Below are positions 476-59,070 of a stretch of 64,000 nt of DNA, piece after piece. This DNA is from Curvularia clavata (Eukaryota): positions 1,798,001-1,862,000 of the forward strand of contig CP089279.1 of assembly GCA_023920165.1 (NCBI GenBank). The letters are read 5' to 3'. Below the pieces are notes generated by a model. It did no database searches and was not told the origin of the DNA. It saw only the letters and a program-made list of their open reading frames with translations. Every line of letters starts with the position of its first letter. The stretch's first letter is position 1. Both the position numbers and the translations under genes were made by a program.

Positions 476-2032
476 TTTGTATTTATTTCTATTTTTATTT
501 CTTATAATTAGCTCGCCTATAGCGATTGGCTAATATTGAAAAGTAGTCTAAAAATAAAAGTAGGCCGCCTTATAGCCTATTAAGATTCAAAAATTGAAAT
601 AAAAACTATATCTAAGAAGAAATTTAAATATAAAGCTTTAAGCTTCTATATTTTAGACTTTAGTATTTTTAGTTTTATATATTAAATTTGATTGGCTTCG
701 GCCTTTTGTGGAATATTTTGTGAAACAATTTGTGAATTACATTTTGATTTTTGAACTAATAGTCACAGCACACCCAGCTCCGCAAAGCTAGATCGACATA
801 TCGTTAACTCCCTCCCTCGTGTCGGCGACATCAACATCCTCCATCTCCACCTCCTTAACTTCTACTGTCTCCAACTCTTGCGATCTTGAAGAAGGTTGTT
901 GGTTGCGCAAGGGATGGAAATCGGGCAGAGGGTGATGTCGATGGGTTTGCCGGGCTAGAGACTGAGTTCACGAGAGCAGGGTACTTATAGGCGGCTGTGA
1001 GCTGTTCTACTGCTTTGCGCTGCGTGTCCTCATCACAACTATGGTTCATCGAGTGCAGATTTTGCTGCCCGTTGTTGGACGCCTAATGGGGTGGTTGTTG
1101 TTGTTTTGTGGCTCAGTTCTATCCGGACTAGTACCAACTTTTCGAGACGAGGGCTAGGTGGCCTTTGGTGCCTGAGGCCTGGAGCCCGAGGCCTCGCGTT
1201 CGAATCCCTACTTGGACAGTATCCTTTATCTTGACTTCTTGATTTTTGGTGGGCTGAGGGGCGGCCTGCTGCTCGTTTATGTGATGTATATTTTGGGCTA
1301 ATCGCCGCCGGCGAGCCAATTGTGGGAAATGAAAACATAAATAAACATTAAATTTGAAATAAAGTATAAATCTAGATTAGAATAATGATAATTACACTAA
1401 TAAAGTTTTATCTATTAAGTAGCTAATAATAGATAAAGCAAATTCTAAAGTTATTAAACTATAGTTATAATTAAAATATATAGTATTAGAGTAGCGTATA
1501 CTATCTATAAATATCTACTCTTCTATTCTTATAAATTTAATTTCTAGCTTAGTAAAATCTATTAATAGTATTATATACTTAGCTTATTCTATTTCTTTTT
1601 CTAGTCTTTTTCAAATTTAGATTAGCTATATTTAATCTCTCTAGATCATAAGTAGTCTTTTTTACTCTTTTTTTAGACGTTTAGTCTACTCTCTATAAGC
1701 TACTTTTAAGTAAAGTTACTATAGAGCTATAGAAATAGCTCTTTAAATAGCTTAACTTTCTAGATATAAGTGTATTTAAAAATAATAACTATATTCTATA
1801 TTATAACTAATAGAAAGATATAATATAGCTATAATAGTTATAAGATTAGAAAATTATTTTTATTAATAGATAAGATATATTAAAAATTTATAATTCTAGC
1901 TATTAATTAATTAAAAAAAGTATAGTAAAGCTATCTATTCTAGATATTTAGTTATAGCTAGAATATAATATTTATAAAATTAGAAAAACTATTATGATTA
2001 GATATATAGATATAGAAGTAGTATTATAATAT
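476..2032 (-). mobile_element. SINE-like retroelement, subfamily 2, copy A (5'-truncated, interrupted by copy B)
   Basis: 476-691 plus 1358-2032 is the reverse complement of ~2350-3240; it carries the family 3' motif (TTAGCTCGCC...GGCCGCC) and an A-rich tail at the left end. Confidence 0.7.
692..1346 (+). mobile_element. SINE-like retroelement, subfamily 1, copy B (internally deleted, essentially un-RIPed)
   Basis: 11-bp TSD ATTAAATTTGA at 681-691 and 1347-1357; 5' GGCTTCGGCC; B-box GTTCGAATCC at 1198-1207; 3' stem-loop then GAAATGAAAACATAAATAAA tail; no TIRs. Confidence 0.8.
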
Positions 2033-2961
2033 CTAATCCGGTTTCGGCCTTTTACGAAACGTTTTAAGAAACACTTTAGATTTTATTTTTTATATTTAAA
2101 TTAAGCTTAACGAATATAGTTTAAACCCAGCCTCCGCAACGCTATATTAGTATATTGTCTAACCTCTCTCTTATATCTACTATCTTGATATCCTCTATCT
2201 CTATATTACTATCTCTATCTATATTACTATTATTATTACTATTACTATCTATGTCTACTTCCGCGTCTGTATCTATATTATCGTCTAACTAGCGTAGTCT
2301 TAACTAGATAAGATAGAGCGTTGTATCTATCTAAGCTATACTTTTTAAATAGTATTATACTACTTCTATATCTATATATCTATCTATAATAGTTTTTATA
2401 ATTTTATAAATATTATATTCTAGCTATAACTAAATATCTAGAATAGATAGCTTTACTATACTTTTTTTAATTAATTAATAGCTAGAATTATAAATTTTTA
2501 ATATATCTTATCTATTAATAAAAATAATTTTCTAATCTTATAACTATTATAGCTATATTATATCTTTCTATTAGTTATAATATAGAATATAGTTATTATT
2601 TTTAAATACACTTATATCTAGAAAGTTAAGCTATTTAAAGAGCTATTTCTATAGCTCTATAGTAACTTTACTTAAAAGTAGCTTATAGAGAGTAGACTAA
2701 ACGTCTAAAAAAAGAGTAAAAAAGACTACTTATGATCTAGAGAGATTAAATATAGCTAATCTAAATTTGAAAAAGACTAGAAAAAGAAATAGAATAAGCT
2801 AAGTATATAATACTATTAATAGATTTTACTAAGCTAGAAATTAAATTTATAAGAATAGAAGAGTAGATATTTATAGATAGTATACGCTACTCTAATACTA
2901 TATATTTTAATTATAACTATAGTTTAATAACTTTAGAATTTGCTTTATCTATTATTAGCTA
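1420..2961. repeat. Perfect 563-bp inverted repeat (1420-1982 / 2399-2961) with a 416-bp spacer
   Basis: Line-by-line comparison found no mismatch between 1420-1982 and the reverse complement of 2399-2961; first mismatches at 1419 and 1983. Confidence 0.9.
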
Positions 2962-3245
2962 TTTAATAGATAAAACTTTATTAGTGTAATTATTATTATT
3001 CTAATTTAAATCTTTACTTTATTTTAGATTTAATATATAAAGCTAAAAATACTAGAGCTTAAAATATAGAAGCTTAAAGCCTTACGTTTAAACCCTCCCC
3101 CCCACCTCTTAGATATAGTCCTTTTTTAAATTTTTAAATTTCAGTAGGCTGAGGGGCGGCCTACCTTTATTCTAAGACTATTTTTCAATATTAGCCAATT
3201 ACTATAGGCGAGCTAATAATAAGCAATGAAAATAGGAATAATTGA
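2039..3245 (+). mobile_element. SINE-like retroelement, subfamily 2, copy A' (full length)
   Basis: Starts GGTTTCGGCCTTTT like copy B; ends GGCTGAGGGGCGGCC...GGCGAGCTAAT...GCAATGAAAATAGG; internal body differs from subfamily 1. Confidence 0.7.
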
Positions 3246-3274: not shown

Positions 3275-4531
3275 TTATTATTTTTCATGTTTTCATTCCC
3301 TATAATTGGCTCGTCTATAATAATTAGTTTAAAATATACATTATATGAATAAGCGGCAGACTACTTTTTAGACTACTAAAAATTAAGAAGTCAAGATAAA
3401 GAATACTATCTTAGTAGAGATTTAGATATAAAGTCTTAAATTTTAGGCTTCAAAAACTAAAGACTATCTAGCTTTCATTTTAAAAAGTTAGTACTAGTCT
3501 AAATAAAACTAAGCTATAAAACAATAATAACTATTTTATTCGATATCTAATAATAGATAGTAAAATCTATACTTAATAAACTATAGTTATAACAAGAATC
3601 CATAGTATTGAGTAGTAGAACAGCTTATAGCTATTTATAAATACTCTTTTTTATAAACTTAGTTTTTAGTCTAGTAAATCTATTAATATTAGTTTTTATC
3701 TAATTTCTATCTCTTACGTAACTAATAATCCTCTTTAAAATTATAATCCAACTATATCATTATACTCTATTAGCTTATCTGGATAGTAAAAGACTATAGT
3801 TATTTTTATACTATGTAAATACTATATTTACTTTCTTTAATAGAATAGATATTAATATTCTTTAATATTTCCAGAAATAGCTTTTTAACTAGCTAAAGTA
3901 TGTTAACTATCTATTAGCTAAAAACTACTCTATCTTACTAAAAAAGTACTAAATTAAGAAGATATAACTACACAAAACGTTAATATTCTATACTAATTTT
4001 ATTAACAGCTAAGAAGCCTTTTAACTATATAAATTTAGATTTAATTCAATCCAGAAGATTTAACGTTAAATAGAAACGTTACTATATTTTATTAGAGTAG
4101 AGTTAGAGATAGTGTAACGGTGCGCAATGCACCATTACACTACATTGGTTATGTAATCTGTAGTCACGTGGGCTGGTAGTTATAAGCCCACCCCTTTCAG
4201 TAGTTAGAGAGAGTCAGACACCTCACACACAATAGTACACAAAAACTCCAATCTTTCTCTCCTGTTCCTCTCCTCAGTTGCCTGCCCACTCACTCCTACA
4301 CCGACTCTACCGCTCACTGAGTAGAAACCGTAGCCTCGACCAACTACACCCTTACAATAGTAGAAGTTAAGAAGGTAGAGATAGAGAATATTAATATTGC
4401 TAATATAAGAAAGAAAATTAATAATATATTGATCTAGCTTTATAGAGCTAGATATACTATAACTATGAGTTTAAAAATGAAGAGATAATTTATAATATAT
4501 TTTATAAAATAGTCTATAAAAGGCTGAAGTT
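3275..4531 (-). mobile_element. SINE-like retroelement, subfamily 1, copy C (interrupted by a solo LTR)
   Basis: Colinear with 15881-17038 and with the reverse complement of copy B; ends AAAGGCTGAAGT (RIPed GGCCGAAGCC). Confidence 0.75.
4113..4356 (+). mobile_element. Solo LTR, 244 bp
   Basis: TGTAA...TTACA termini; 4-bp TSD ATAG (4109-4112, 4357-4360), confirmed against the empty site at ~16855-16870; TATAAG box; retains many CpA. Confidence 0.85.
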
Positions 4532-4559
4532 AATAAAATGCTCTATATAATATTTTACT

Positions 4560-5272
4560 TCTAAAGAAATTCAGAGCAATCTATATTGATATCAAAAAAA
4601 AGGAATATAATAGATCTTAATATATAGTGATTCTTATAGATCTATAGTTATCATAGAAGAAGATAGCTTAAAATAGATAAAAGTATAAATCAAGATAATA
4701 AAGATAGGTTTTAATATGAGTCTAGATAGTTTAGTAAATATAATAAAATAGATACAGTAAGAAGATTTTAAAGATTTAAAAAGCTAAAAGATATTATCTA
4801 ATTAATAAATTTTTTTTTAGATATATAGTAGATAGAAAGTAGTTAGAAAGTAATATTTACTAAAGTACTAGACTAGAGACTAAGTTTATGAAAGTAGAAT
4901 ATTTATATTTAGAGATTATATACTATACTACTATCTTACATATTATATTCTTATTATAACTATAGTTTATCAAGTATAGATTTTACTATCTATAGTTAGA
5001 TATCTAATAAAGTAGTTATTATTATCATGTAGTTTAGCTCTATATGAACTAGTCCTAATTTTTAAAATAAAACTAGATAGTTTTTAGTATCTAAAATCTG
5101 AAATCTAAAGTCTTATATCTAAATTTCTATTTAGATAGTATTCTTTATCTTGATTTCTTGATTTTTAGTAGACTGAGAGATAGCCTGCTACTTATTTATA
5201 TGATATATATCTTAGGCTGATCGCTATAGGCAAGCTAACTTTAGGAAATAAATATATAAATAAATAAATAAA
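4560..5272 (+). mobile_element. SINE-like retroelement, subfamily 3, copy D (degraded)
   Basis: The 3' ~450 bp matches copy B and ends in a (TAAA)n tail; the upstream part matches 31893-31980. 5' boundary uncertain. Confidence 0.6.
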
Positions 5273-14345: not shown

Positions 14346-15880
14346 TACTTAAAATATACTCTAAATATTTAGTCTAAGTAATATAGAATTTATTTTTCTT
14401 AATATGAAATTAGAGATCTATTTATCTGAGCTTTTCTATAATTTATTATATATAGTAGAGATAGTTTAGTTCTAATTTAAAGTAGATTAAAATATCATTT
14501 TAATAGACTATATAGAAGCTATCTAAATAATTAATTAATTTATCATTCATATAGTATTAATATATTATAGAGCTATTATATGATTTAAAAGATAATACTT
14601 TGGATTTAAACATTTTATATTTAGTATAAAACGTTATATACTTTTCTAAGTTAGAGTATACTCAGATTTTATCAAACAATATATATATATTAAGCTTAGT
14701 AAAGATTTTCATTTTATAAATATAGACTAGAAGCTTATTAATATATAGTATCAAATATACGTTTTATCAGTAATTAAATGAAGTCTATAGTAATTTATAT
14801 AGATATAGATATTTCTATCCAGCTTTTAAATATAGACAACTAGGAAGATAAAAATGTAGCTACTTGAGTTAATATATCTTTCTCTAAAGTTTTCTATTAT
14901 AAATATTTTAGTAGTTTTAAACTCTTTAATACTCTATTCATATAGAGAGCTAGATTAATTTAGAAAAAAGTCTAGTTAGTATAATTTCATAGTTATATAG
15001 ATGATATTTAGATAGTAATTCTACTACTATCTTACTAAAGATATTACGATATCAATAGTCTGTAGATAGAAATTAGTTCTAAATAAGTTTCGTATTTTTA
15101 AAATTATTTAGCTTTATACGCTTTTTTAAAACATAATTGATTTTATAGATATTTATTATAAAGAATTTATTTTTCTTCTACTTTATAAAAAAATAGAGAG
15201 TATTTACTAAGATAATAGTAATATAAAATAAAAATATTAGTTGAATAGAGTTTTAAGTAAACTTAGAAATAGATAGTTATAAATAAATCTTAGAAAATCT
15301 CAAGTATCTTCTAATTTTTAATATAAAAGTTCTTTAAAAACTATTTTGATTTCAGTAGTTGTTTTTTTTATAGTACGTCTTATTTTTATATATTCTATTC
15401 TATATTAGTATTAATAGAAAGTTATTTTAACTATATAAAAACAGAGAGTATAAAATTAATTATTAGAGAGTATTTAGCTAGCTATATACTTGAGTTTTAG
15501 TTGATATCAAGTTTAAGCTAAAACTATTTTAATCATTCAACTTTGATTATATAGTTTTATATCTCTAAATGTATAATTATAAAAAGATAGTTATAAATTC
15601 TTTTTTATTAATTTAGATATATAACTAAATATTTTTATCTATTTAGTTTAGACTTAGTTTCAAAATTCTTTAATTATCATTTTAAAAAAAAAATTTTGAA
15701 GAGATCTAAAGAGAACTAGAAAGAATATAAGTAATAATAAGATTCAAAAATAAAAGTTTTAGGCTCTAGTATTAACTCAAGAGTATAAGCTCATACTAAG
15801 CTTTTTTGAATAAAGAATTTTAGAGACTAAAAAGTATTTTCTTCTAAATAAGTAGAATAAATTAATCTTGACTAGGTTAT

Positions 15881-17038
15881 TTATTTATTTATGTTTTTAT
15901 TTCCTATAATTAGCTCGCCTATAACAATTAGCCCAAAATATATATTATATAAATAAGCGGCAGGCCGCCCCTCAGCCTACTAAAAATTAAGAAGTTAAGA
16001 TAAAGGACACTGTCTAAGTAGGGATTCAAACGCAAGGCCTTAGGCTCTAGACCTTAAATACTAAATATCTTAGATACTAAAGATTATCTAATCTCTATCT
16101 TAAAAAGTTAGTACTAGTCTAGATAAAACTAAACTATAAAATAATAATAACTATCCTATTAGATATCTAATAATAGATAGCAAAATCTATACTTAATAAA
16201 CTATAATTATAATAAAGATATACAGCATAAAGTAGTAGAATAGCTTATAGCTATTTATAAGTACTCTTCTCTTATAAACTTAGTTTTTAGTCTAGTAAAT
16301 TTATTAATATTACTCTCTACCTAATTTCTATCTCTTACGCAACTAATAATCTTTTTTAAAATTGTAATTTAACTATATTATTATACTCTATTAATCTATC
16401 TAAACAGCGAGAGATTATAGTTATCTTTATACTAAACGCTATATTTGCTTTCTATAATAGAATAGATATTAATGTCTTTTAAAATCTCTAGAAATTGCTC
16501 TCTAACTAGCCAAGGTATTTTAGCTATCTATTAGCCAAAAACTACTCTACCTTACTAAAAAAGTACTAGAGTAATAAAATTCGACTATACAAAATGTTAA
16601 CATTCTATACTACAATTATTAATAGCTAGAAAGCTCTTCAACTATATAAATTTAGATTCAACTTAATCTAGAAGATCTAAAAGAGATAGCTTAGTTAAAC
16701 TACTTATAACTAGCTTTATAATGATATAAGCAATATCTAATAGGCTATTATAGCCTAAATACTAACTAAAAAGTAGCGCGAATTTAAAGTAAAATTTTAG
16801 TCTAAGAAGAGTCAACATTAGATAGGGGCGTTGTTGTATTTTATTAGGGTAGAGTTAGAGATAGTAGAAGTTAAAAAGATAGAGATAGAGGATATTGATA
16901 TCGCCAATATAAGAGAGAGAGTTAATAATATATCAATCTAGCTTTATAGAGCTAGATATGCTGTGACAATTAGTTTAAAAATTAAACTATAACCTATAAA
17001 ATGTTTTATAAGATATTCTATACAAGGCCGAAGCTAAG
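15881..17038 (-). mobile_element. SINE-like retroelement, subfamily 1, copy F (longest, ~1.16 kb)
   Basis: (TTTA)n tail at left, AGGCCGAAGC at right; candidate 8-bp TSD TAGGTTAT (15873-15880, 17039-17046). Confidence 0.78.
16375..16941 (+). pseudogene. RIP-destroyed ~188-codon passenger ORF of the SINE-like element, function unknown
   Basis: Frame runs without indels from ATA (RIPed ATG) at 16375 to TAG at 16941; internal stops are all TAA/TAG; TATAAGTA at 16256; the un-RIPed copy B reads the C-terminus as EVKEVEMEDVDVADTREGVNDMSI*. Confidence 0.6.
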
Positions 17039-17291
17039 TAGGTTATATTTATTTATATCTAAAATAGAGAGTTTTTTTCCAATTCTAATAATTTTTTATT
17101 TAGTTTTTCTCTAAAAAGTATTTATATACTTTTGTAATCTTTTTTTTTTTATTCTAATTTCTTAGATTTAAAAAATAAAATACTAATTTATATAATATCT
17201 AGATTTTATATAGTTATAGTAATTATTTATAGTTAGCTTACTATTTAGTAAAGAGATCTTTGAAGAAAATCTAAAAGTATTAAAATAAATA

Positions 17292-19547
17292 CAGTGGGGG
17301 TTCATAAATAAAAAGTACTAAAAAAAGTAGTAGTTTTAGAACGACTAGAACTCGGCCGATAAAATAGCTAAAGATATAAAAGATACCATTATGTATAGGG
17401 ATTAGTCAGCAGTTTCAATCTAGTATTTTAGATATAGCTTAGTAAGCATGTATGAAATGCAATAAATTGTCCAAGTAGATTGAAGAAAACAAGCAAAATA
17501 AAAGCTATTCTTTCGCGCTTAAATTTTTGGATATTTATCATATTTAGTGTACATATATAATATATCTATATAACGTGGTTCACAAGCGAGCGGCTCACCC
17601 AACCAAGCGGCTCACGCCCCACCAGCGCGCCAACGTCGACACTACAACGCGTTATGTCTCAGCAACGCGATAATCAATTAACTTATCCTAAATCAGATCT
17701 TTAACTTGCTCTTTTTAATGTCCAATCGCAACGTGTTTAAAGCTAAAGACGTGCTGTCTCTATCTATAACGTGCCTCAAAGAACTTTGTCTTACCAACGC
17801 GCTGGAAGACGCTCTCGACGCGACTGCGAACCGAATTCAAAGCGCCTAAATAAGCTAGAAGAAGAGGCTATAGTTAAGCGTATTCTTAAAGAATCTACGC
17901 GAGGATTTGCGTCTATAAAGGCTGATATTTAAGTAATAGCTAATAAACTATTATATAAGCAAGAGAGCAACCTTACTAGTAAGAACTAGGTTGATAACTT
18001 TGTCAAGCGAACTCCTAAGATCCGTACGCGCTAGAGCTATCTCTATAATCACCAGCGAGCCGCCTACGAGGATCTAGTGGCTATCTAACGCTAGTTTAAC
18101 TTAGTCCAGGCGATAAAGCAGAAGTGGGGTATTATAGATAATAATATCTATAACTTTAATAAGACTGGCTTTATAATAGGTAAGATTTTATTATAATTAG
18201 TTATTATAGGCTTAGAAGAATATAGTAAAAAGAAGCGGGTACAGCTAGACAACCGTAAGTAGGTTACTGCGATCTAAGGCGTAGGCGCGTCGGGTCACTA
18301 GATACCACCCTTCGTTGTCTTTACGGGTAAGGTGCTTATTAACGTCTAGTTTGAAAATTTGCCTGCCGACTAGGTTTTTGAAATTAGTCCTAATAGCTAG
18401 ACGAATAATCAGCTTAGTATTGTTTAGCTAAAGCACTTTAATACCTATACAAAGAGGCATACTATAGGTGGGTATCGACTGCTAATTATTAACGGCTATA
18501 AGAGCTACTACTCCGTCGAATTTCAAGATCTTTGTAAGGAGAAGAATATCGTTCTTCTCTACATGCCTGCGCACTCGTCTCACCTATTGCAGCCTCTTAA
18601 CGTCGCCTACTTCTCGCCGTTAAAGCGCAAGTATGGCGACGCTGTTTCAGGCTTGGCACGCAACCACACCAACTATATCAGCAAGAAGACCTTCCTGCTA
18701 GCCTTTAAGGCGGCTTTTGAGCAGTCTATCACGAAGGAGAATATCTAAGCTGGCTTTAGAGGTGCTAGTCTAGTCCCACACGACCCACAGGCTATACTAT
18801 CAAAGCTTAATATGGTAGTGCAGACACCATATCAATCACCACGACGGGCAGCCGCCTAGGAGGCGCAGACACCATATAACGCGCGCGAGGTTGAGGCTCA
18901 AATTAGTCTTATTCAACAAAGCGTGAGAAGGCGCCGTGGGTCTTCTGCCAATTCACTTACTAAGCAGATCGCGCAGTTGAGTAAAGGGGCTTAGCAAATA
19001 GCATATAAGATAGTGCTTCTAACAGAGAAAATTACTACTCTTTAAGCGGCTCTTGACGAGTTAAATAAGCATAAGAGCCGCAAGCGGCGATATATACGGA
19101 TAGAAGAGACTCTTACTATAGGCGAAGTACAAGAAGTATTAGCTAAACAGGCGGGTAGTAGTCGTGGCGACGGTGAGAGTGCGTCGAAGAGGGTGCGAGG
19201 AGAGAGGCGGTGCGGGCGTTGTAAGCAGACTAGACACAACGCTCGTACCTATACAGTTAAGATAGATAGTGCAAGTAATAACGGCGATTCTAATAATTAA
19301 ATTAGTATATCGTAATAGTTTATTGACTGTGATAAAAGACCGTAATAACGTGTCGACGTCGGCGCGCTGGTGGGGCGTGAGCCGCTCGGTTGGGTGAGCC
19401 GCTCGCTTGTGAACCACGTTATATATAATTTATATTTCTATAGCTATATCTATTTATCTAAATAAATAATAATATAAGATTATAAATTTTAGCACTAGCT
19501 TACGTAACTAATAGCTTAGTCAGCTATTAGTCAGCTTATAGTATATA
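17292..19547 (+). mobile_element. Left end of a long-TIR Tc1-like element, interrupted by pogo elements
   Basis: TA-CAGTGGGGGTTCA TIR of the 5694 type; 19470-19545 is homologous to the pre-ATG region of the 33068-35178 element. Confidence 0.65.
17573..19419 (+). mobile_element. pogo/Fot1-type DNA transposon, full length, RIPed transposase from ATG 17654
   Basis: TA-ACGTGGTTCACAAGCGAGCGGCTCA TIRs; motifs PAHSSHLLQPL and C-terminal RRCGRCKQTxHNART; 1847 bp. Confidence 0.93.
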
Positions 19548-30985: not shown

Positions 30986-33065
30986 TAGTATTACTATGAA
31001 GTTTTCTTTTCTATACTGTTTAATCAAATAAATGAATTATACTCTAATATCTCTATTTTTACTATATTTTTTAATATCTATCTAGTATATTATAAGAAAT
31101 ATAATATTTTTTCTATCTATAAGCTATCTATACTTTATCATACTATTAGTTTAATAGTATTTATATCTATCTATTTAATTTTTTTAAAAGTATATTTATT
31201 ATGTTTAGTAAAAAGAAGAGTATAATTCAAAAAAGTTTACTTTTTTCCTCTTCTATAACTTATAGTTTAGCTAATCTAAATATATTCTTAAGTATATTTT
31301 GAAAAGAAGATTTATAATTTAGTTAATACTATTAAGTTATATACTATTGCTTAGGATAGTTTTATAGCTGAAACTAATTTAGAAGCTATATTAAATCAAA
31401 TTATTATCTGTATTTCCAGTATCGCTTATAAAATCTAAGTTAGGAGATTTTAGAAAAAAACTTTTAATTAATTAGTTTTTTATCATCTAGAACTAGATTC
31501 TAAAAGATATCTAAAAAAGCATTTTAAAATCAGTTAATATAGTTAAAAGTATTAAAAAATATTTTTTATATTATAAAATAAAATCAGCTCAAAATAGTGT
31601 TTTGAATAGCTTTTAGATCAAGATATTAAAAGAATTGTCAGATTTTTCTTTTATAAAAAGAGAATAAGAGTATAGTTAATTAGAGAATAGCTGATACTAA
31701 ATAAAAGTACTCTAATATTAGACTTTAAGTTAAATAGTATTTAAAAAGTTTACTAGCAGTAGTAGGGTTTAAGTCTAAATTTTCTTTGTCATTAATATCT
31801 AATATAGTTTCATTTTTTTTTTTTTTAATTTTATTATTCTATAGTAAAATTATATCTTTTATATTGTATTTCTATGTTGTAGTTTACTTATAGGTAGACA
31901 TGGTAAGAAGATAATTGAAGAAGCTAATGGATGATATCCGATTGATGAGGAAGACGTTTTAGATACGTAGTAGATAGAAATTAGTTAGAGGGTGATATTG
32001 ATTAAGTTGCCAGACTAGAGACTAAGGTTATAAGAATAGAGTATTTATAGTTGGAAGTCATATACTATACTACTATCTTACGCTTTATATCCTTATTATA
32101 ACTATAGTTTATTAAATATAGATTTTACTATCTATAGTTAGATATCTAATAAAGAAGTTATTATTATTTTATAGCTTAGTTCTATTTAGACTATTACTAG
32201 CTTTTTGAAATAAGAGCTAAACAGCTTTTAGTATCTAAGGTCTAGAGTCTAAAGGGCTATATATTTAAATCTCTACTAAGATAGTATCTTTTATTTTAAC
32301 TTTTTAATTTTTAGTAGACTAAGAGATAGTCTGCCGCTCGTTTATATGATGTATATTTTGGGCTAATCGCCGCAGGCGAGCCAATCACTGGAAATAAAAA
32401 TAGAAAGAAATAGTTTACTTATAAAAAGCATACAAAAATTCTAATTTAGTAAAATATTATTTACGAAAGAATTTAGATTTATATAAAACTTCTGTAAAGT
32501 TTAAAGCTAGATACTAAACAGAGTCTAAATTGTATCTAACTTACTATATCTAGTATTCTGGATTTAAATAGTATAATTTATTGATTAGAATCTTTTCTAT
32601 CTTTTTTTTTTTCTAAATTTTGAATAGAAGTAGCTAGAGACTTTGGAGATTCTTACTTTGAAAAAAGGTTTTAACAGTTTTTAAATCATAGGTTTAAAGT
32701 AAAGATATTGTTTGAGTCTAGAATTTTTTAGTAGATATAGATAGTATTAATATCTGAATATTTTTAAGTACTCTAAAAAATCTTTTTTATTGAGAAAAGC
32801 ACTTTCTACTTAAATAGTCTAATATGAAACTCTAAATACTTAGAAGGACTATATTTTACTATTTCAGTTAATGAAATAATAATATTGGTTAACTATAGAT
32901 TATCTACTATTTTAGACTTCCTCTATTTTTTTTTAGCTATCTTTGATATATTATATACATTAGTAGCTTTTTTTAACATATTTTTTCATAGTTGAATTTA
33001 TTGGTAAAAAGATAAGGACTGATAAAATATTTCTAGTTCTAATTCTACTCTAATTTAGAACTTTA
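30986..33065 (-). mobile_element. Chromodomain Ty3/Gypsy relic 3 (3' region, chromodomain, integrase end)
   Basis: Colinear with ~7250-9500 and with the reverse complement of ~22300-23900; very degraded. Confidence 0.75.
31893..32410 (+). mobile_element. SINE-like retroelement, subfamily 3, copy G (5'-truncated)
   Basis: 13-bp TSD TAGTTTACTTATA (31880-31892, 32411-32423); family 3' stem-loop and A-rich tail; lacks the GGCTTCGGCC end. Confidence 0.8.
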
Positions 33066-54424: not shown

Positions 54425-57400
54425 ATGGGCTCACCACAGCACAATAGCGACAGCGGTTTGGCCACTGTGATGGCGTCTAACGAGCCGTTCCGCCTGCGGG
54501 GCTACCAGGCTGAAATGGTCGAGGAGAGCATGAAAGCCAACACCATCGTTGTCATGGACACGGGGTCTGGAAAGACGCATATGTAAGCCACTAGCCACTC
54601 TTTCAATAAGCTATCATTGATGATACAGCAGCGCTATTGAACGAACTCGAGCGGAGTTGGAGACATGCGAGCCTAACAAGGTGCGGATACCTACTTACCT
54701 GCCGCCAGACCTGCGCTAAGCTACCTCTCACCTCTTTAGATTGTCTGGTTTCTAGCACCCACAGTGGCGCTTTGCGAACAGCAATACGAAGTCTTCCAAT
54801 CCAATCTACCCGGCTACATTCATTTGCTTCTCTGTGGAAGAGACGATGTCGAGTTATGGACGACGCAGAATACCTGGGATCGAGTGCTTCGCAATGTCCG
54901 TATTGTCTTGTCCACGCATCAGATTCTACTTGACGCACTTTCACATGGTTTTGTGAGACTGAGCAGGCTAGCTCTTCTCATTTTTGACGAAGGTTCGCTA
55001 GATGACGTCTCAGAAAAACACTTTTCACTCATGTCTTTTTTAGCTCACCATTGCACGTTAAAACACCCGGCTCATCGTATAATGTCCGGCTTCTATATGC
55101 CGTTAGTAAGGGTGGGAAGTAAAGAACTACCTAAAATTCTGGGTTTAACTGCTAGCCCCGTCATGAAAGCAGCAGCTAACAAGCGAAGTCTTGAGTAAGC
55201 CTGTCAATCCCACAAGCTCGACTGAAGCTGACATACACAAGGGAAATTGAACAGAACTTGCAAGCGACCGCAAGAACACCTAAACAGTACAGGTCTGAAC
55301 TGATTCGCCATGTCCATCAGCCGGAGGTAATTCAAGTCAATTACACTCAGGAATTTCTCAGCAAAAGCCCTTCTGTGTTGCTGCTAGCGTTACAGAACGA
55401 GTGCAGGAATTACGACCTCATGCAAGATCCGTATATAATCGCGCTCATGAACCAGCAAAGGAATGGATACAACGTCTCTAGGCAGCTTGAGAAGATTTGG
55501 ATCAGTGGCAAGACTTATTGCTACGACCACTTAAAACAATTGGTGTCCAAAGCTGAAGCAATGGCAGAAGAGATGGGAAAATCTGTCATGGAACACTTCT
55601 TGCATCATTGTGTAAGCAATTTCGCGAACCTGGCAAGCGCTGCCGATCACCAGCTACTGGAATTATCTAGTGATGAGAGGCAACATCTCTTAAACATCCT
55701 CCAACCACTTCTCGCTCAACACATTACAGTCATTCCAGTCCCATTACTGGAGAGTCTCTCTCATAAGGTCAATGTCCTTATTGATATTCTAGTCAATGAA
55801 GCTACTGCCAGTTCAACATTCACCGGTCTTGTGTTTGTAGAGCAACGAGTCTGGGTGGCATCTCTCGCCGAAATACTGACTTCCCACCCGCGCACCAAAA
55901 GCATACTACGTGTCGCTACATTTGTTGGTACATCTCAGACATCCAAGCGCAAAGGAGATTTAAGCACTTTTGCGGAACCCAAAAACCAGCAAAGCACTCT
56001 TGACAAGTTCAAGGCTGGTATCATCAACCTTGTTTTGGCAACGAGCGTATTGGAAGAAGGTATCGACATACCCAGCTGTCACCTAGTGGTATGCTTTGAG
56101 CATCCTAAGAATCTTAAGTACGTTTTCTCATCACAAGTTTGCTTTATGGTTTTGACTAATCATGTCTTTTTTGAACTTCCAGGGGCTTCATTCAACGCCG
56201 TGGGAGAGCGAGACAACACCAGTCGCGTCTTTATATCTTTGCTCCAAACACTGGAGTCACCCTTTCCCCAGCATCTTGGCAGCTGCTTGAGACTGAGTTG
56301 AGAAAGGCTTACGAAGACGATAAGCGTCAAGTCCTACTGGCTCAGGCACAGGAAAAGGTCAAGGAGGATGGCTCGCGTTGTTTTAAAGTCAGCAGTACTG
56401 GGTAAGTTTGGATATACCATCTTCTACATGTTCTTTATTCCCCACAATCAAAGGCATAGAGGGCCAGTGAACACTGCTAACACAGACTCTAGAGCATTAC
56501 TGACTCTTGATAATGCGTGCCAACATCTCTATCATTTCTGTGCTCGTCTGACGTCCAGTACCTACGGGGATACTCAACCGGAGTTTGATTTCACTAGCGT
56601 TGACGGCCAAATTACTGCAAAGGTTACGCTCCCGATTTCCATCCCACCTGCATTAAGGATGGCCAAGAGTTTTCAAACGTGGAAAACAGAGAAAATGGCA
56701 CGAAAGGACGCGGCTTTTGAAGCATACCGAGCCCTCTACGATTCTGGTTTGGTGAATGAAAACCTCCTTCCTGTTAGAGACGAAGAGGAAGAATTGACAG
56801 CACAGGACCAGTGTCGCAATGATCAGCCGTCGTTGATACCCGTATCTTTCACGGTTGATCCCTGGAAAATTCTCCTTCAGAACCACCATAACAGTTCACA
56901 TGAATGGTATCGCACATTGCTCAATGTGACAGCCCCCGGAGAAGAGCCGTCACAGATGATCCTGTTAACCCCACATGCTGTGCCTGCTATGCCAGACGTA
57001 CTGTTACACTGGAATGAATCAAAGCGGTACAATGCAAAAACTTCCTCCTTGCCTAGTGCATTCCTGACAGATGCCGACGTCCAGCTTCTACGATCTATCA
57101 CATGGACAATGCTTCGCTCGGTTTTCGGTGTTTACGTAGAAGACGACGCTTACGACTTTGTCTACCTCCTCGCACCTTGCAGCAAGCTGAACTATGCCCT
57201 GTCAATGTTTGAACTTGAAAAATGGCATGCGGAGACCAGAGGCCAGCGATCAGCCCAAGAGCTTGTACTTCAAGGCAACGTTGATCCAAGATGCTGGGGT
57301 CTGGCCACGAGACAAGAAGACATGCGAAGATATATTGTCAAAGCCATCAGGCTATTGCCATCCACAGCTTCTGTAGATGCTGAAGAGCCATTCGTGGAAG

Positions 57401-59070
57401 CCGTTCGTTTCCCCAAGCGTCGGGACTTTTTACATCCTATTCCGGAGAGTGACAAAAGGAACGAAGCATATGCCAAGGTTGAGACTCTTGGTGTTTCTTC
57501 ATGCGTTGTCGACAACCTCCCTGTATCGCAAAGTATCCTGGCATTGTTTCTCCCATCGATCGCGCATAGGCTTGAAGTGCACATGGCTGCCGACATACTC
57601 AGAACCAGCCTTCTTAAGCATGTCGACATTGATAACTCTCATTTGCCACTTATCGTTCTGGCGCTTACCTCATCAGCTGCCGATGCTGTATCGAATTATC
57701 AAAGATTGGAATTTCTTGGAGATTGCATTCTGAAGTTCATTACTTCTCTTCACCTGATGGCTACTTACCCTCATATGCCAGAGGGTATGTTGACAGACAA
57801 GAAAGGTAGAATCGTTAGTAATGGGAATCTGGCTCGAGCTGCTTTACATGCTGGCCTTGACAGGTTTATCCTTTACAACAGTTTCACGGGAGCGAAGTGG
57901 AGGCCAAAATACATCAGCCAATTGGTTGCGGACACAAGCATTCCATGCAAGCAAGAAAAGTCTCCAAAGCTCATCGCTGACATTGTAGAATCCCTCATTG
58001 GCGCGTCCTACCTTGCTGGCGGTCTTTCTAAGGCATTCACATGTGTGAAATCCCTGCTACCTTCGGAAAACTGGATGTCCATTTGGAACGCTCATTACAC
58101 ACTCTACAATGCTACTCCTGACCAGGCCACTGTAAGGAGTCTCACCCTGGTAGAGAGACTACTTGGCTATACGTTCAACAATAAAGTCTTACTCGTCGAC
58201 GCACTAACACATTCTACGTTCCGTGGTGTCAACACGCATTGCTCATATGAGCGCGAAGAATTTCTTGGCGACGCAGTGCTTGATTACATCATTTCGAAAA
58301 ATCTCTACGCATACGAACCAGGACTGCCGCATCATAAGATGCACAGCATTCGGACCGCGATGGTCAATGCTTCATTCCTCACGTACAGCATGTTTGAGAC
58401 CACTGTTGAAGAAGAGCTGACAAGCAAAGAAACGTTACAATCGCAAACTCATCAAAGAGCTTTATGGCAATTCCTTCGATTCACGAGCTACGAACTTGCC
58501 GCTTTACAATCCATAGCCCTAAGAAGACATGTTGAAGCACGAGCACAAATTGCTGCAGCTCTGGAACATGATGCACGTTTTCCATGGCAAGCGCTCTCGC
58601 TCACGGACCCACCAAAGTTCCTCTCTGATATAGTAGAGAGCGTCATCGGTGCCCTTTACATTGACAGTCATGGTTCCATTTCGGTTTGCGAAGAGTTTAT
58701 TCGACGCCTTGGCATCCTACGTTGTCTTGAGCGTATCCTGAGCGATGATGTAGATTGCTTACATCCAAAGGAACGCCTGGGGATCCTTGCGGTTGATAAG
58801 ACAGTGACTTACGTGCATATCACGAGTGATACAAAAAGAGACGAAGGCAAATCGATCGCGATGAATGACACAACGTACAAAGTACAGGTCAGAATTGGTG
58901 GGCAGGATGTCGGAGATGTTGTTAAAGGTGTAAAGAGACTACAGGCCGAGACGATTGCTGCTTGGAGAGCCATTGAAATCATTGAACGAGTAGGTGTCGA
59001 GTATCAAGACATGAGAGAAGAAGACGAGGTGTTTTTCGATGCGGAAGAAGATGGTGGAGTGAGGCTGTAA
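54425..59070 (+). CDS. DCL2: Dicer-like protein 2 (DExD/H helicase, helicase C, Dicer dsRNA-binding fold, two RNase III, dsRBD), multi-exon; start at 54425 or 54470
   Basis: [76 protein letters not shown]; no recognisable PAZ domain. Confidence 0.93.

Follow-up and report, generated by a model that had tools for sequence, protein, structure and literature searches.

A conserved gene antisense to a retrocopied tail, probably assembled by splicing and reverse transcription beside a LINE-type enzyme in a fungal genome

The window analysed here, 64,000 nucleotides of the 32.4-Mb, 8-contig assembly G000 (G000:C6:1798001-1862000), carries copies of a 1.2-kb element with a gene lying antisense to the RNA strand of the element. 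Comparison of the copies and of their relatives supports a conserved protein-coding gene, and we consider it probable that a resident LINE-derived system builds this gene by splicing and reverse transcription. The only intron-bearing form of the element was found on contig C7, where introns on the wrong strand break the frame of the gene, and the copies are intronless; a complete gene thus arises only when the RNA has been spliced and then reverse-transcribed.

The first 35 kb of the window consist of AT-rich, RIP-mutated fungal repeats and the remainder of ordinary genes. The earlier note on this DNA had pointed to a 189-codon frame free of indels, in which all internal stops are TAA or TAG, preceded by the box TATAAGTA. 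On re-reading, the frame at 16375-16941 (+) indeed comprises 189 codons including the terminal TAG, without frameshift and with 16 internal stops, each TAA or TAG; its start codon is mutated to ATA, and copy L002 retains ATG at that position. The octamer TATAAGTA was located at both places named in the note, 16256-16263 (+) and 989-982 (-), the latter on the minus strand of the copy referred to as copy B. As evidence for a gene, neither the stop types nor the octamer stood out from the chance background: 18 octamers were counted in the window where chance predicts 11.3 ± 3.5, and 5 of 100 shuffles reach 18. The other two plus frames over the same interval hold 19 and 25 stops, and TGA makes up only 2 of the 25 in the one frame in which stop types were counted, so that stops of TAA and TAG alone are a general feature of RIP-mutated DNA here. 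Because the octamer count is near chance and the stops are alike in other frames, frame and octamer alone are weak evidence, and the case for a real frame rests on the copies of the family, not on features of the window. The position of the box stood up better: a sequence of the form TA(C/T)A-A-(A/G/T)TA is found at the identical place in 7/7 aligned leaders, reading TACAAATA in three unmutated ones, and this conserved TATA-like box may serve as a promoter.

Three subfamilies of the element were distinguished in G000: A (the window frame and locus L019), B (L026) and C (L041). They are colinear with 28-34% amino-acid identity, and in the middle of the gene they align as protein where the DNA no longer aligns. 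L019 includes an unmutated subfamily-A piece whose frame stays open for 105 codons and shares 49% identity with that of the window, and the lightly mutated, colinear B and C copies contain 4 stops in 192 codons and 6 stops in 202 codons, respectively; these are the best full-length copies found in G000, none being stop-free. When A was compared with C, the frame of the gene gave 46 bits (E 5e-13), whereas of the five remaining frames two gave no score and three gave 15, 24 and 31 bits, a moderate margin over the best antisense frame (31 bits) in a control of one pair. The positions of start and stop are held in common. A profile search of 1.84 billion proteins gave seven matches, six of which are relatives, located on short metagenome contigs without gene context and predicted by gene callers as open frames of 140-172 aa with 25-32% identity; the window frame matches one of them, P0010, at 26% over 159 aa (E 3e-14). 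The seventh, the phytoplasma repeat protein P0013, was dropped as a compositional or repeat artefact. A word-based homologue search with P0002 yielded 0/67 candidates, a later homologue search returned just three matches, each already in the set, and scans of viral and prokaryotic contigs gave no relatives. A metagenome scan with a 14-nt 5' motif was unspecific, since no locus found by it matched the element, and was set aside.

Structure prediction, suggested in the earlier note as a check, was run on the relative P0010 with AlphaFold and a 13-row alignment. The model (pLDDT 80.4, pTM 0.77) shows a small alpha+beta fold made of a helix pair, a beta hairpin and four helices, and the family protein ends in an acidic tail. 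The note had recognised no domain, and the searches agree: a Pfam search gave no family for the protein, the best hit of a PDB sequence search had E 0.26, the ESM Atlas gave no match, Foldseek against PDB and viral structures returned nothing at E <= 0.001, and the wide search with VIA-align reached at best Z 4.2 with rmsd 4.0 over 71. Such blank searches do not establish a new fold. With no match by family, sequence or fold, the selfish helper of anti-silencing or toxin/antidote type that the note considered is a conjecture. Taken as a whole the interpretation in the note is partly supported; its core, a real conserved protein-coding passenger antisense to the retro-tail, is borne out by the subfamilies, the metagenome relatives, the frame control and the predicted fold. 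A separate observation concerns L019:900-2250 (G000:C1:~1,376,380-1,377,700), an unmutated chimera with a first half of subfamily A, a C-like tail insert and a second half of subfamily B. Its leader is ~500 nt long, compared with the usual ~120, and P0012 corresponds to its last 40 residues.

The copies of the carrier element (Table 1) share both ends. All seven full-length C copies that were aligned, as well as A and B copies, begin at the hairpin within ~2 nt. The consensus structure of the 3' end has -10.4 kcal/mol, with two-sided change in only 2/15 pairs, that is, thin covariation support. Target-site duplications of 8, 11, 13 and 12 bp were read by eye in four copies, and many copies of the element are tail-only. 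Target-site duplications and tail-only copies are marks of target-primed reverse transcription, as known from LINEs. A reading of the element as a Helitron was dropped because of the target-site duplications and the loss of introns. ARAGORN found no tRNA gene within the window, which leaves a tRNA-derived head unsupported, and no Rfam match, ribozyme or other family, was obtained for the element. Each of the 8 contigs has a single AT-rich block in which the copies are concentrated, and our guess is that these blocks are centromeres. Copy B had been described as free of RIP, which is correct; it carries merely the last ~30 codons of the gene, the middle being deleted.

Table 1. Features of the retrocopied element and its antisense gene in the window
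Feature	Position	Strand	Basis or remark
Antisense gene, subfamily A	16375..16941	+	188 codons + stop; 16 RIP-type stops; 49% to unmutated L019 piece
TATA-like box, then C/T-rich leader	16256..16263	+	~120 nt before start codon; same position in 7/7 aligned leaders
Subfamily-A retrocopy, full length (~1.16 kb), RIP-mutated	15881..17036	- (RNA strand)	Ends and colinearity with other copies
Fixed 5' end of copied RNA, GGC-UUCG-GCC hairpin	17024..17036	-	Shared start with other copies
3' end: GC-rich stem-loop region and (TAAA)n tail	15881..15965	-	Conserved in 10 aligned ends
Target-site duplication, left, 8 bp exact	15873..15880	+	Sequence reading
Target-site duplication, right	17039..17046	+	Sequence reading
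Copy B, unmutated subfamily A, most of gene deleted	694..1346	+	11-bp target-site duplication 681-691 / 1347-1357
Subfamily-C retrocopy, without any of the nine introns of the C7 master, RIP-mutated	2038..3245	+	Gene on minus strand
Second subfamily-A copy, with deletion and ~240-bp insert	3278..4533	-	Insert TG...CA near 4114-4356
5'-truncated (tail-only) copy	4814..5271	+	–
5'-truncated copy, nearest subfamily B	31892..32415	+	–

Several further features of these blocks were recorded. The TG...CA insert in the second subfamily-A copy is probably a solo LTR. Positions 1347-2036 and 2345-3034 form an inverted duplication, 97.8% identical and adjoining the 5' end of the subfamily-C copy, whose near-identical RIP pattern suggests that the duplication postdates mutation. 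On C7 the copies L201 and L205 are arranged tail-to-tail, and on C8 (L003/L014/L060) and C3 (L017/L057) copies of different subfamilies lie end to end or nested in tails, which hints at T-rich tail sequence as a preferred target. Beside the flagged copy, at 17555-19435, lies a RIP-mutated DDE transposon with terminal inverted repeats of ~88 bp, classed by eye, and ~20 kb off the repeat block a Dicer-like gene (54764-59070), named from motifs by eye.

On contig C7, locus L051 is an unmutated master of subfamily C, starting 27 nt behind the stop codon of a reverse transcriptase (RT) gene. The whole unit (G000:C7:~1,693,800-1,703,110) is a single-copy locus flanked by host genes, and no repeat flanking it was found. 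It consists of a zinc-knuckle (gag-like) gene directed leftward, an intron-bearing APE-RT-CCHC gene directed rightward and a 1.75-kb tail. The tail contains nine segments of 47-119 nt that read GT...AG on the RNA strand and thus run antisense to the gene; six of them have a branch-like motif according to our own pattern, and the exons measure 25-261 nt. The gene is interrupted by two introns and cut at its end by a third; two more separate the TATA-like box from the ATG, three are farther upstream and one is beyond the stop. Both introns within the gene preserve the frame when removed, and splicing also rejoins the TATA-like box and the leader. The spliced tail measures 1204 nt; its longest ATG frame is 64 aa on the RNA strand and 203 aa antisense, and the unspliced antisense frame has only 96 aa. 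On the strand of the gene the inserts read CT...AC, and by eye no usable intron was seen there. All nine introns are absent from the 7/7 full-length C copies in the aligned set, one of which is in the window. Of 35 matches just one runs across the introns, hence the intron-bearing form is single. Since the introns are spliceosomal, a Pol II origin of the tail RNA is indicated. No master for subfamily A or B was found in G000.

The RT gene encodes an APE domain (PF14529, E 3.4e-12), an RT domain (PF00078, E 1e-30) with the YVDD motif and a C-terminal CCHC motif. Among 87 RVT_1 matches in G000, three have the length of LINE-type enzymes, LINE and LTR type being judged by the length of the match, and of these C7 alone is stop-free. 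The two other LINE-type RTs are decayed and ~30% identical to the C7 RT, and no tail was found in the 10 kb stretches around them; one further short match reads as telomerase. The RT gene is absent from the tail copies, and dispersed intronless copies that include ORF2 were not found (1 close match of 3). Relatives of the enzyme are present in Bipolaris (74%), Alternaria (66%), Parastagonospora (56-58%) and Pyrenophora (about 55%), 54-74% overall, and in Fusarium (34-44%), and the nearest carry PF14529. Judging from the named relatives, G000 itself would be a member of the Pleosporales. Two of the relatives, P0020 and P0021, have an insert of ~16 aa exactly at the place of the RT intron, which is probably an uncalled intron. 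The zinc-knuckle gene lies on the strand opposite to RT, ~1.5 kb upstream, and therefore no ORF1 is found upstream on the same strand. As a candidate relative of ORF1, it has three CCHC-like motifs by eye, no Pfam match over the cut-off, no alignment with P0056 and a model with pLDDT 50. Near the start of the RT gene a long (AAG)n run (L221:3912-3988) encodes poly-lysine. Behind the tail we noted a 522-aa frame (L218:8318-9883) with an F-box-like start by eye and no Pfam match, and an RNase H gene (L219:2804-3226, PF00075, E 1e-25). Elsewhere in G000 many RT matches have identical scores and stop-free frames of 1100-1500 aa, and read as a recent LTR-type burst untouched by RIP.

Four of 21 listed sequencing runs were compared with the C7 locus (L221) as contigs, which carry no strand; X9 and X14, both from one study, are RNA by the guess of the tool, and parts of L221 uncovered in these RNA-type runs are uninformative. 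Five of the nine tail introns are skipped in RNA-type contigs. The RT intron L221 6797-6842 is skipped in both X9 and X14 and retained in the DNA run. Contig 25 of X9 lacks a single tail intron but retains the adjacent ones (1 difference in 911 nt), the pattern expected of a part-spliced master RNA, and contig 11 of X14 extends across the end of the RT gene and into the first exon of the tail. The DNA run X1 contains joined forms, with C>T or G>A at 53/62 listed change places. The main RT contig of X14 retains the APE-RT intron (L221:5580-5641; the strain differs at donor +5) and skips a further GT-AG-like piece of 65 nt in the RT frame (L221:5865-5929), which breaks the frame; hence this contig cannot encode the whole enzyme, and the X14 strain possibly has a disabled one. 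In X14, L221:9168-9446 is also covered by a contig of depth 94 that represents a further, fourth variant of the tail, shorter and unmatched to the master.

From these data we propose that the neighbouring RT would make the copies by target-primed reverse transcription. The spliced 1.2-kb tail has been inserted into the genome as copies that run from the 5' hairpin to the A-rich end, the RT gene being left behind; the copy or its cDNA would be transcribed from the TATA-like box, and RIP would later destroy the copies. RIP requires a few hundred bases of homology, and the master may evade it because its exons are short and the RT gene is single. The frame persists in the master though the master cannot express it, which points to selection on the copied product as the force that would keep the frame open. 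The flagged frame in the window would then be a copy of an older or foreign subfamily-A master no longer visible in G000. As for the protein, it may be a payload whose constant presence would be harmful or restrict growth and which is hence gated by reverse transcription, a role we put forward tentatively; that it helps transposition or counters silencing is a doubtful suggestion, and other roles account for the rest.

The same loci could be read as the remains of an ordinary LINE whose 3' UTR harboured an antisense gene; one copy would have settled and gained introns, and it would still shed tails while the gene goes unused. Antisense frames are known in LINEs (L1 ORF0), and every copy seen in G000 is broken. 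Nevertheless we regard this as unlikely, because the spliced master frame is open over 203 codons with both inner introns preserving it, although the gain of more than 10 introns, one of which a different fungal family seems to have as well, would have given an unused frame time enough to decay. If the frame is a relic after all, what remains is another form of LINE-driven retrocopying. A purely selfish retroposon proof against RIP would share the architecture proposed above and differ from it in purpose: the introns would only hide the master, the protein would aid spread through anti-silencing or targeting, and gating by RT would be a by-product. The exons of 25-261 nt, the unmutated master with its mutated copies and the clustering of copies in one AT-rich block on each of the eight contigs all agree with it. 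The RT gene does not copy itself, so that the enzyme does not multiply along with the tail, and RT relatives in several genera suggest a long vertical descent that calls for another benefit; we judge such a purely selfish purpose rather improbable.

The remaining explanations dispense either with the gene or with the neighbouring enzyme. That a domesticated RT gene simply has a long 3' UTR, or a spliced RNA without coding function, as its tail, and that the frame is a shadow of conservation at the RNA level, appears very unlikely to us: the middle of the gene aligns as protein and not as DNA, open relatives of 140-172 aa persist at 25-32% identity, start and stop positions are shared, and the predicted fold is confident. 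What speaks for a non-coding tail is that both RNA ends are conserved at the DNA level, that one frame antisense to the gene reaches 31 bits, and that spliced antisense lncRNAs of transposons occur in Blumeria, according to the available part of the report (PMC10648671). Hardly credible, in our view, is production of the copies in trans by another RT, from an extinct LINE or an LTR element, with the adjoining RT incidental. G000 does contain many stop-free RT genes of the shorter, LTR-type span and the two decayed LINE-type RTs, but the 5' truncation of copies and the variable length of the target-site duplications agree with a LINE enzyme, no tail was found in the 10 kb stretches around the decayed RTs, the tail starts 27 nt after the RT stop, and one X14 contig joins both.

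The proposed splicing and copying system was also compared with known ones. With APE-type LINEs (Tad1-like in fungi) it has in common the APE domain, the YVDD RT and the C-terminal CCHC motif, as well as target-site duplications, an A-rich tail and 5' truncation of copies. It differs from them in that the RT gene is single, intron-bearing and never within copies, the zinc-knuckle gene points away, and copying, with its fixed starting point, is confined to the 3' tail. Like processed retrocopies, the copies have lost all introns (7/7 aligned C copies) and show target-site duplications; in contrast to these, the own-strand frame of the parent RNA is only 64 aa, and it is retrocopying that creates the gene. 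The same logic underlies engineered retrotransposition indicator cassettes, whose antisense marker is interrupted by an intron of the sense strand and becomes complete once the RNA has been spliced and reverse-transcribed; the cassettes are constructs with one intron, the C7 tail is natural and has nine. The SINE-like Eg-R1/ROPIP1 of Blumeria, described in the accessible portion of PMC6022647 as coding for a peptide, is likewise short, non-autonomous and LINE-dependent with coding potential. The C7 system differs from SINEs in its one intron-bearing master beside its own RT, and where SINEs are defined as non-coding it has an antisense gene, broken at the master, for a protein of ~200 aa that is predicted to be folded. 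As for a Pol III head from tRNA, 5S or 7SL RNA, neither ARAGORN in the window nor Rfam gave a match.

Bacterial DRT2, as far as the consulted part of PMC11100668 describes it, forms rolling-circle concatemers that yield the neo gene upon a phage trigger, and it shares with the C7 system an RT beside an RNA template and a gene that the chromosome itself holds only in incomplete form. On that description the differences are considerable: in the C7 system the wrong-strand introns are taken out by splicing and the integrated copies are monomers that contain a stop codon, so that the C copies show neither concatemeric cDNA nor a stop-less frame, and enzyme class, host and protein are unrelated, the likeness being one of logic only. 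The rvt genes are also single-copy domesticated RTs found in fungi; the excerpted account in PMC10680173 presents them as a distinct RT type with non-templated synthesis, in contrast to the LINE-type C7 RT with its APE domain and integrated products. Hence the C7 system uses LINE chemistry, yet by the criteria tested it is no LINE, SINE or ordinary retrogene. The literature searched, a scope outside which lay most subscription journals, Repbase and supplements, contained no account of such a system, and the architecture, seen in one genome, is apparently undescribed.

In a wider and rather speculative reading, which we offer with more doubt than trust, Pleosporales would have domesticated a LINE enzyme that assembles a hidden gene: wrong-strand introns would lock it and shield it from RIP, reverse transcription would unlock it, and RIP would erase the product in the next sexual cycle. 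The payload would be growth-limiting or concerned with self/non-self, subfamilies A, B and C and the X14 variant would be successive or competing template alleles, and the whole would be a eukaryotic counterpart of DRT2/neo. RT relatives occur in genera with many public genomes, and the claim is thus directly testable. Since the gene is whole only in reverse-transcribed copies, annotation is blind to it at the master and RIP destroys the copies; a conserved family with an unmatched fold could thus be overlooked even in well-studied fungi. If the proposed assembly by splicing and reverse transcription is true, it would represent a natural form of the logic of reporter cassettes, a way for a retro-system to coexist with RIP by means of a single enzyme and a template in short exons, and a role for a LINE enzyme that has ceased to propagate its own gene.
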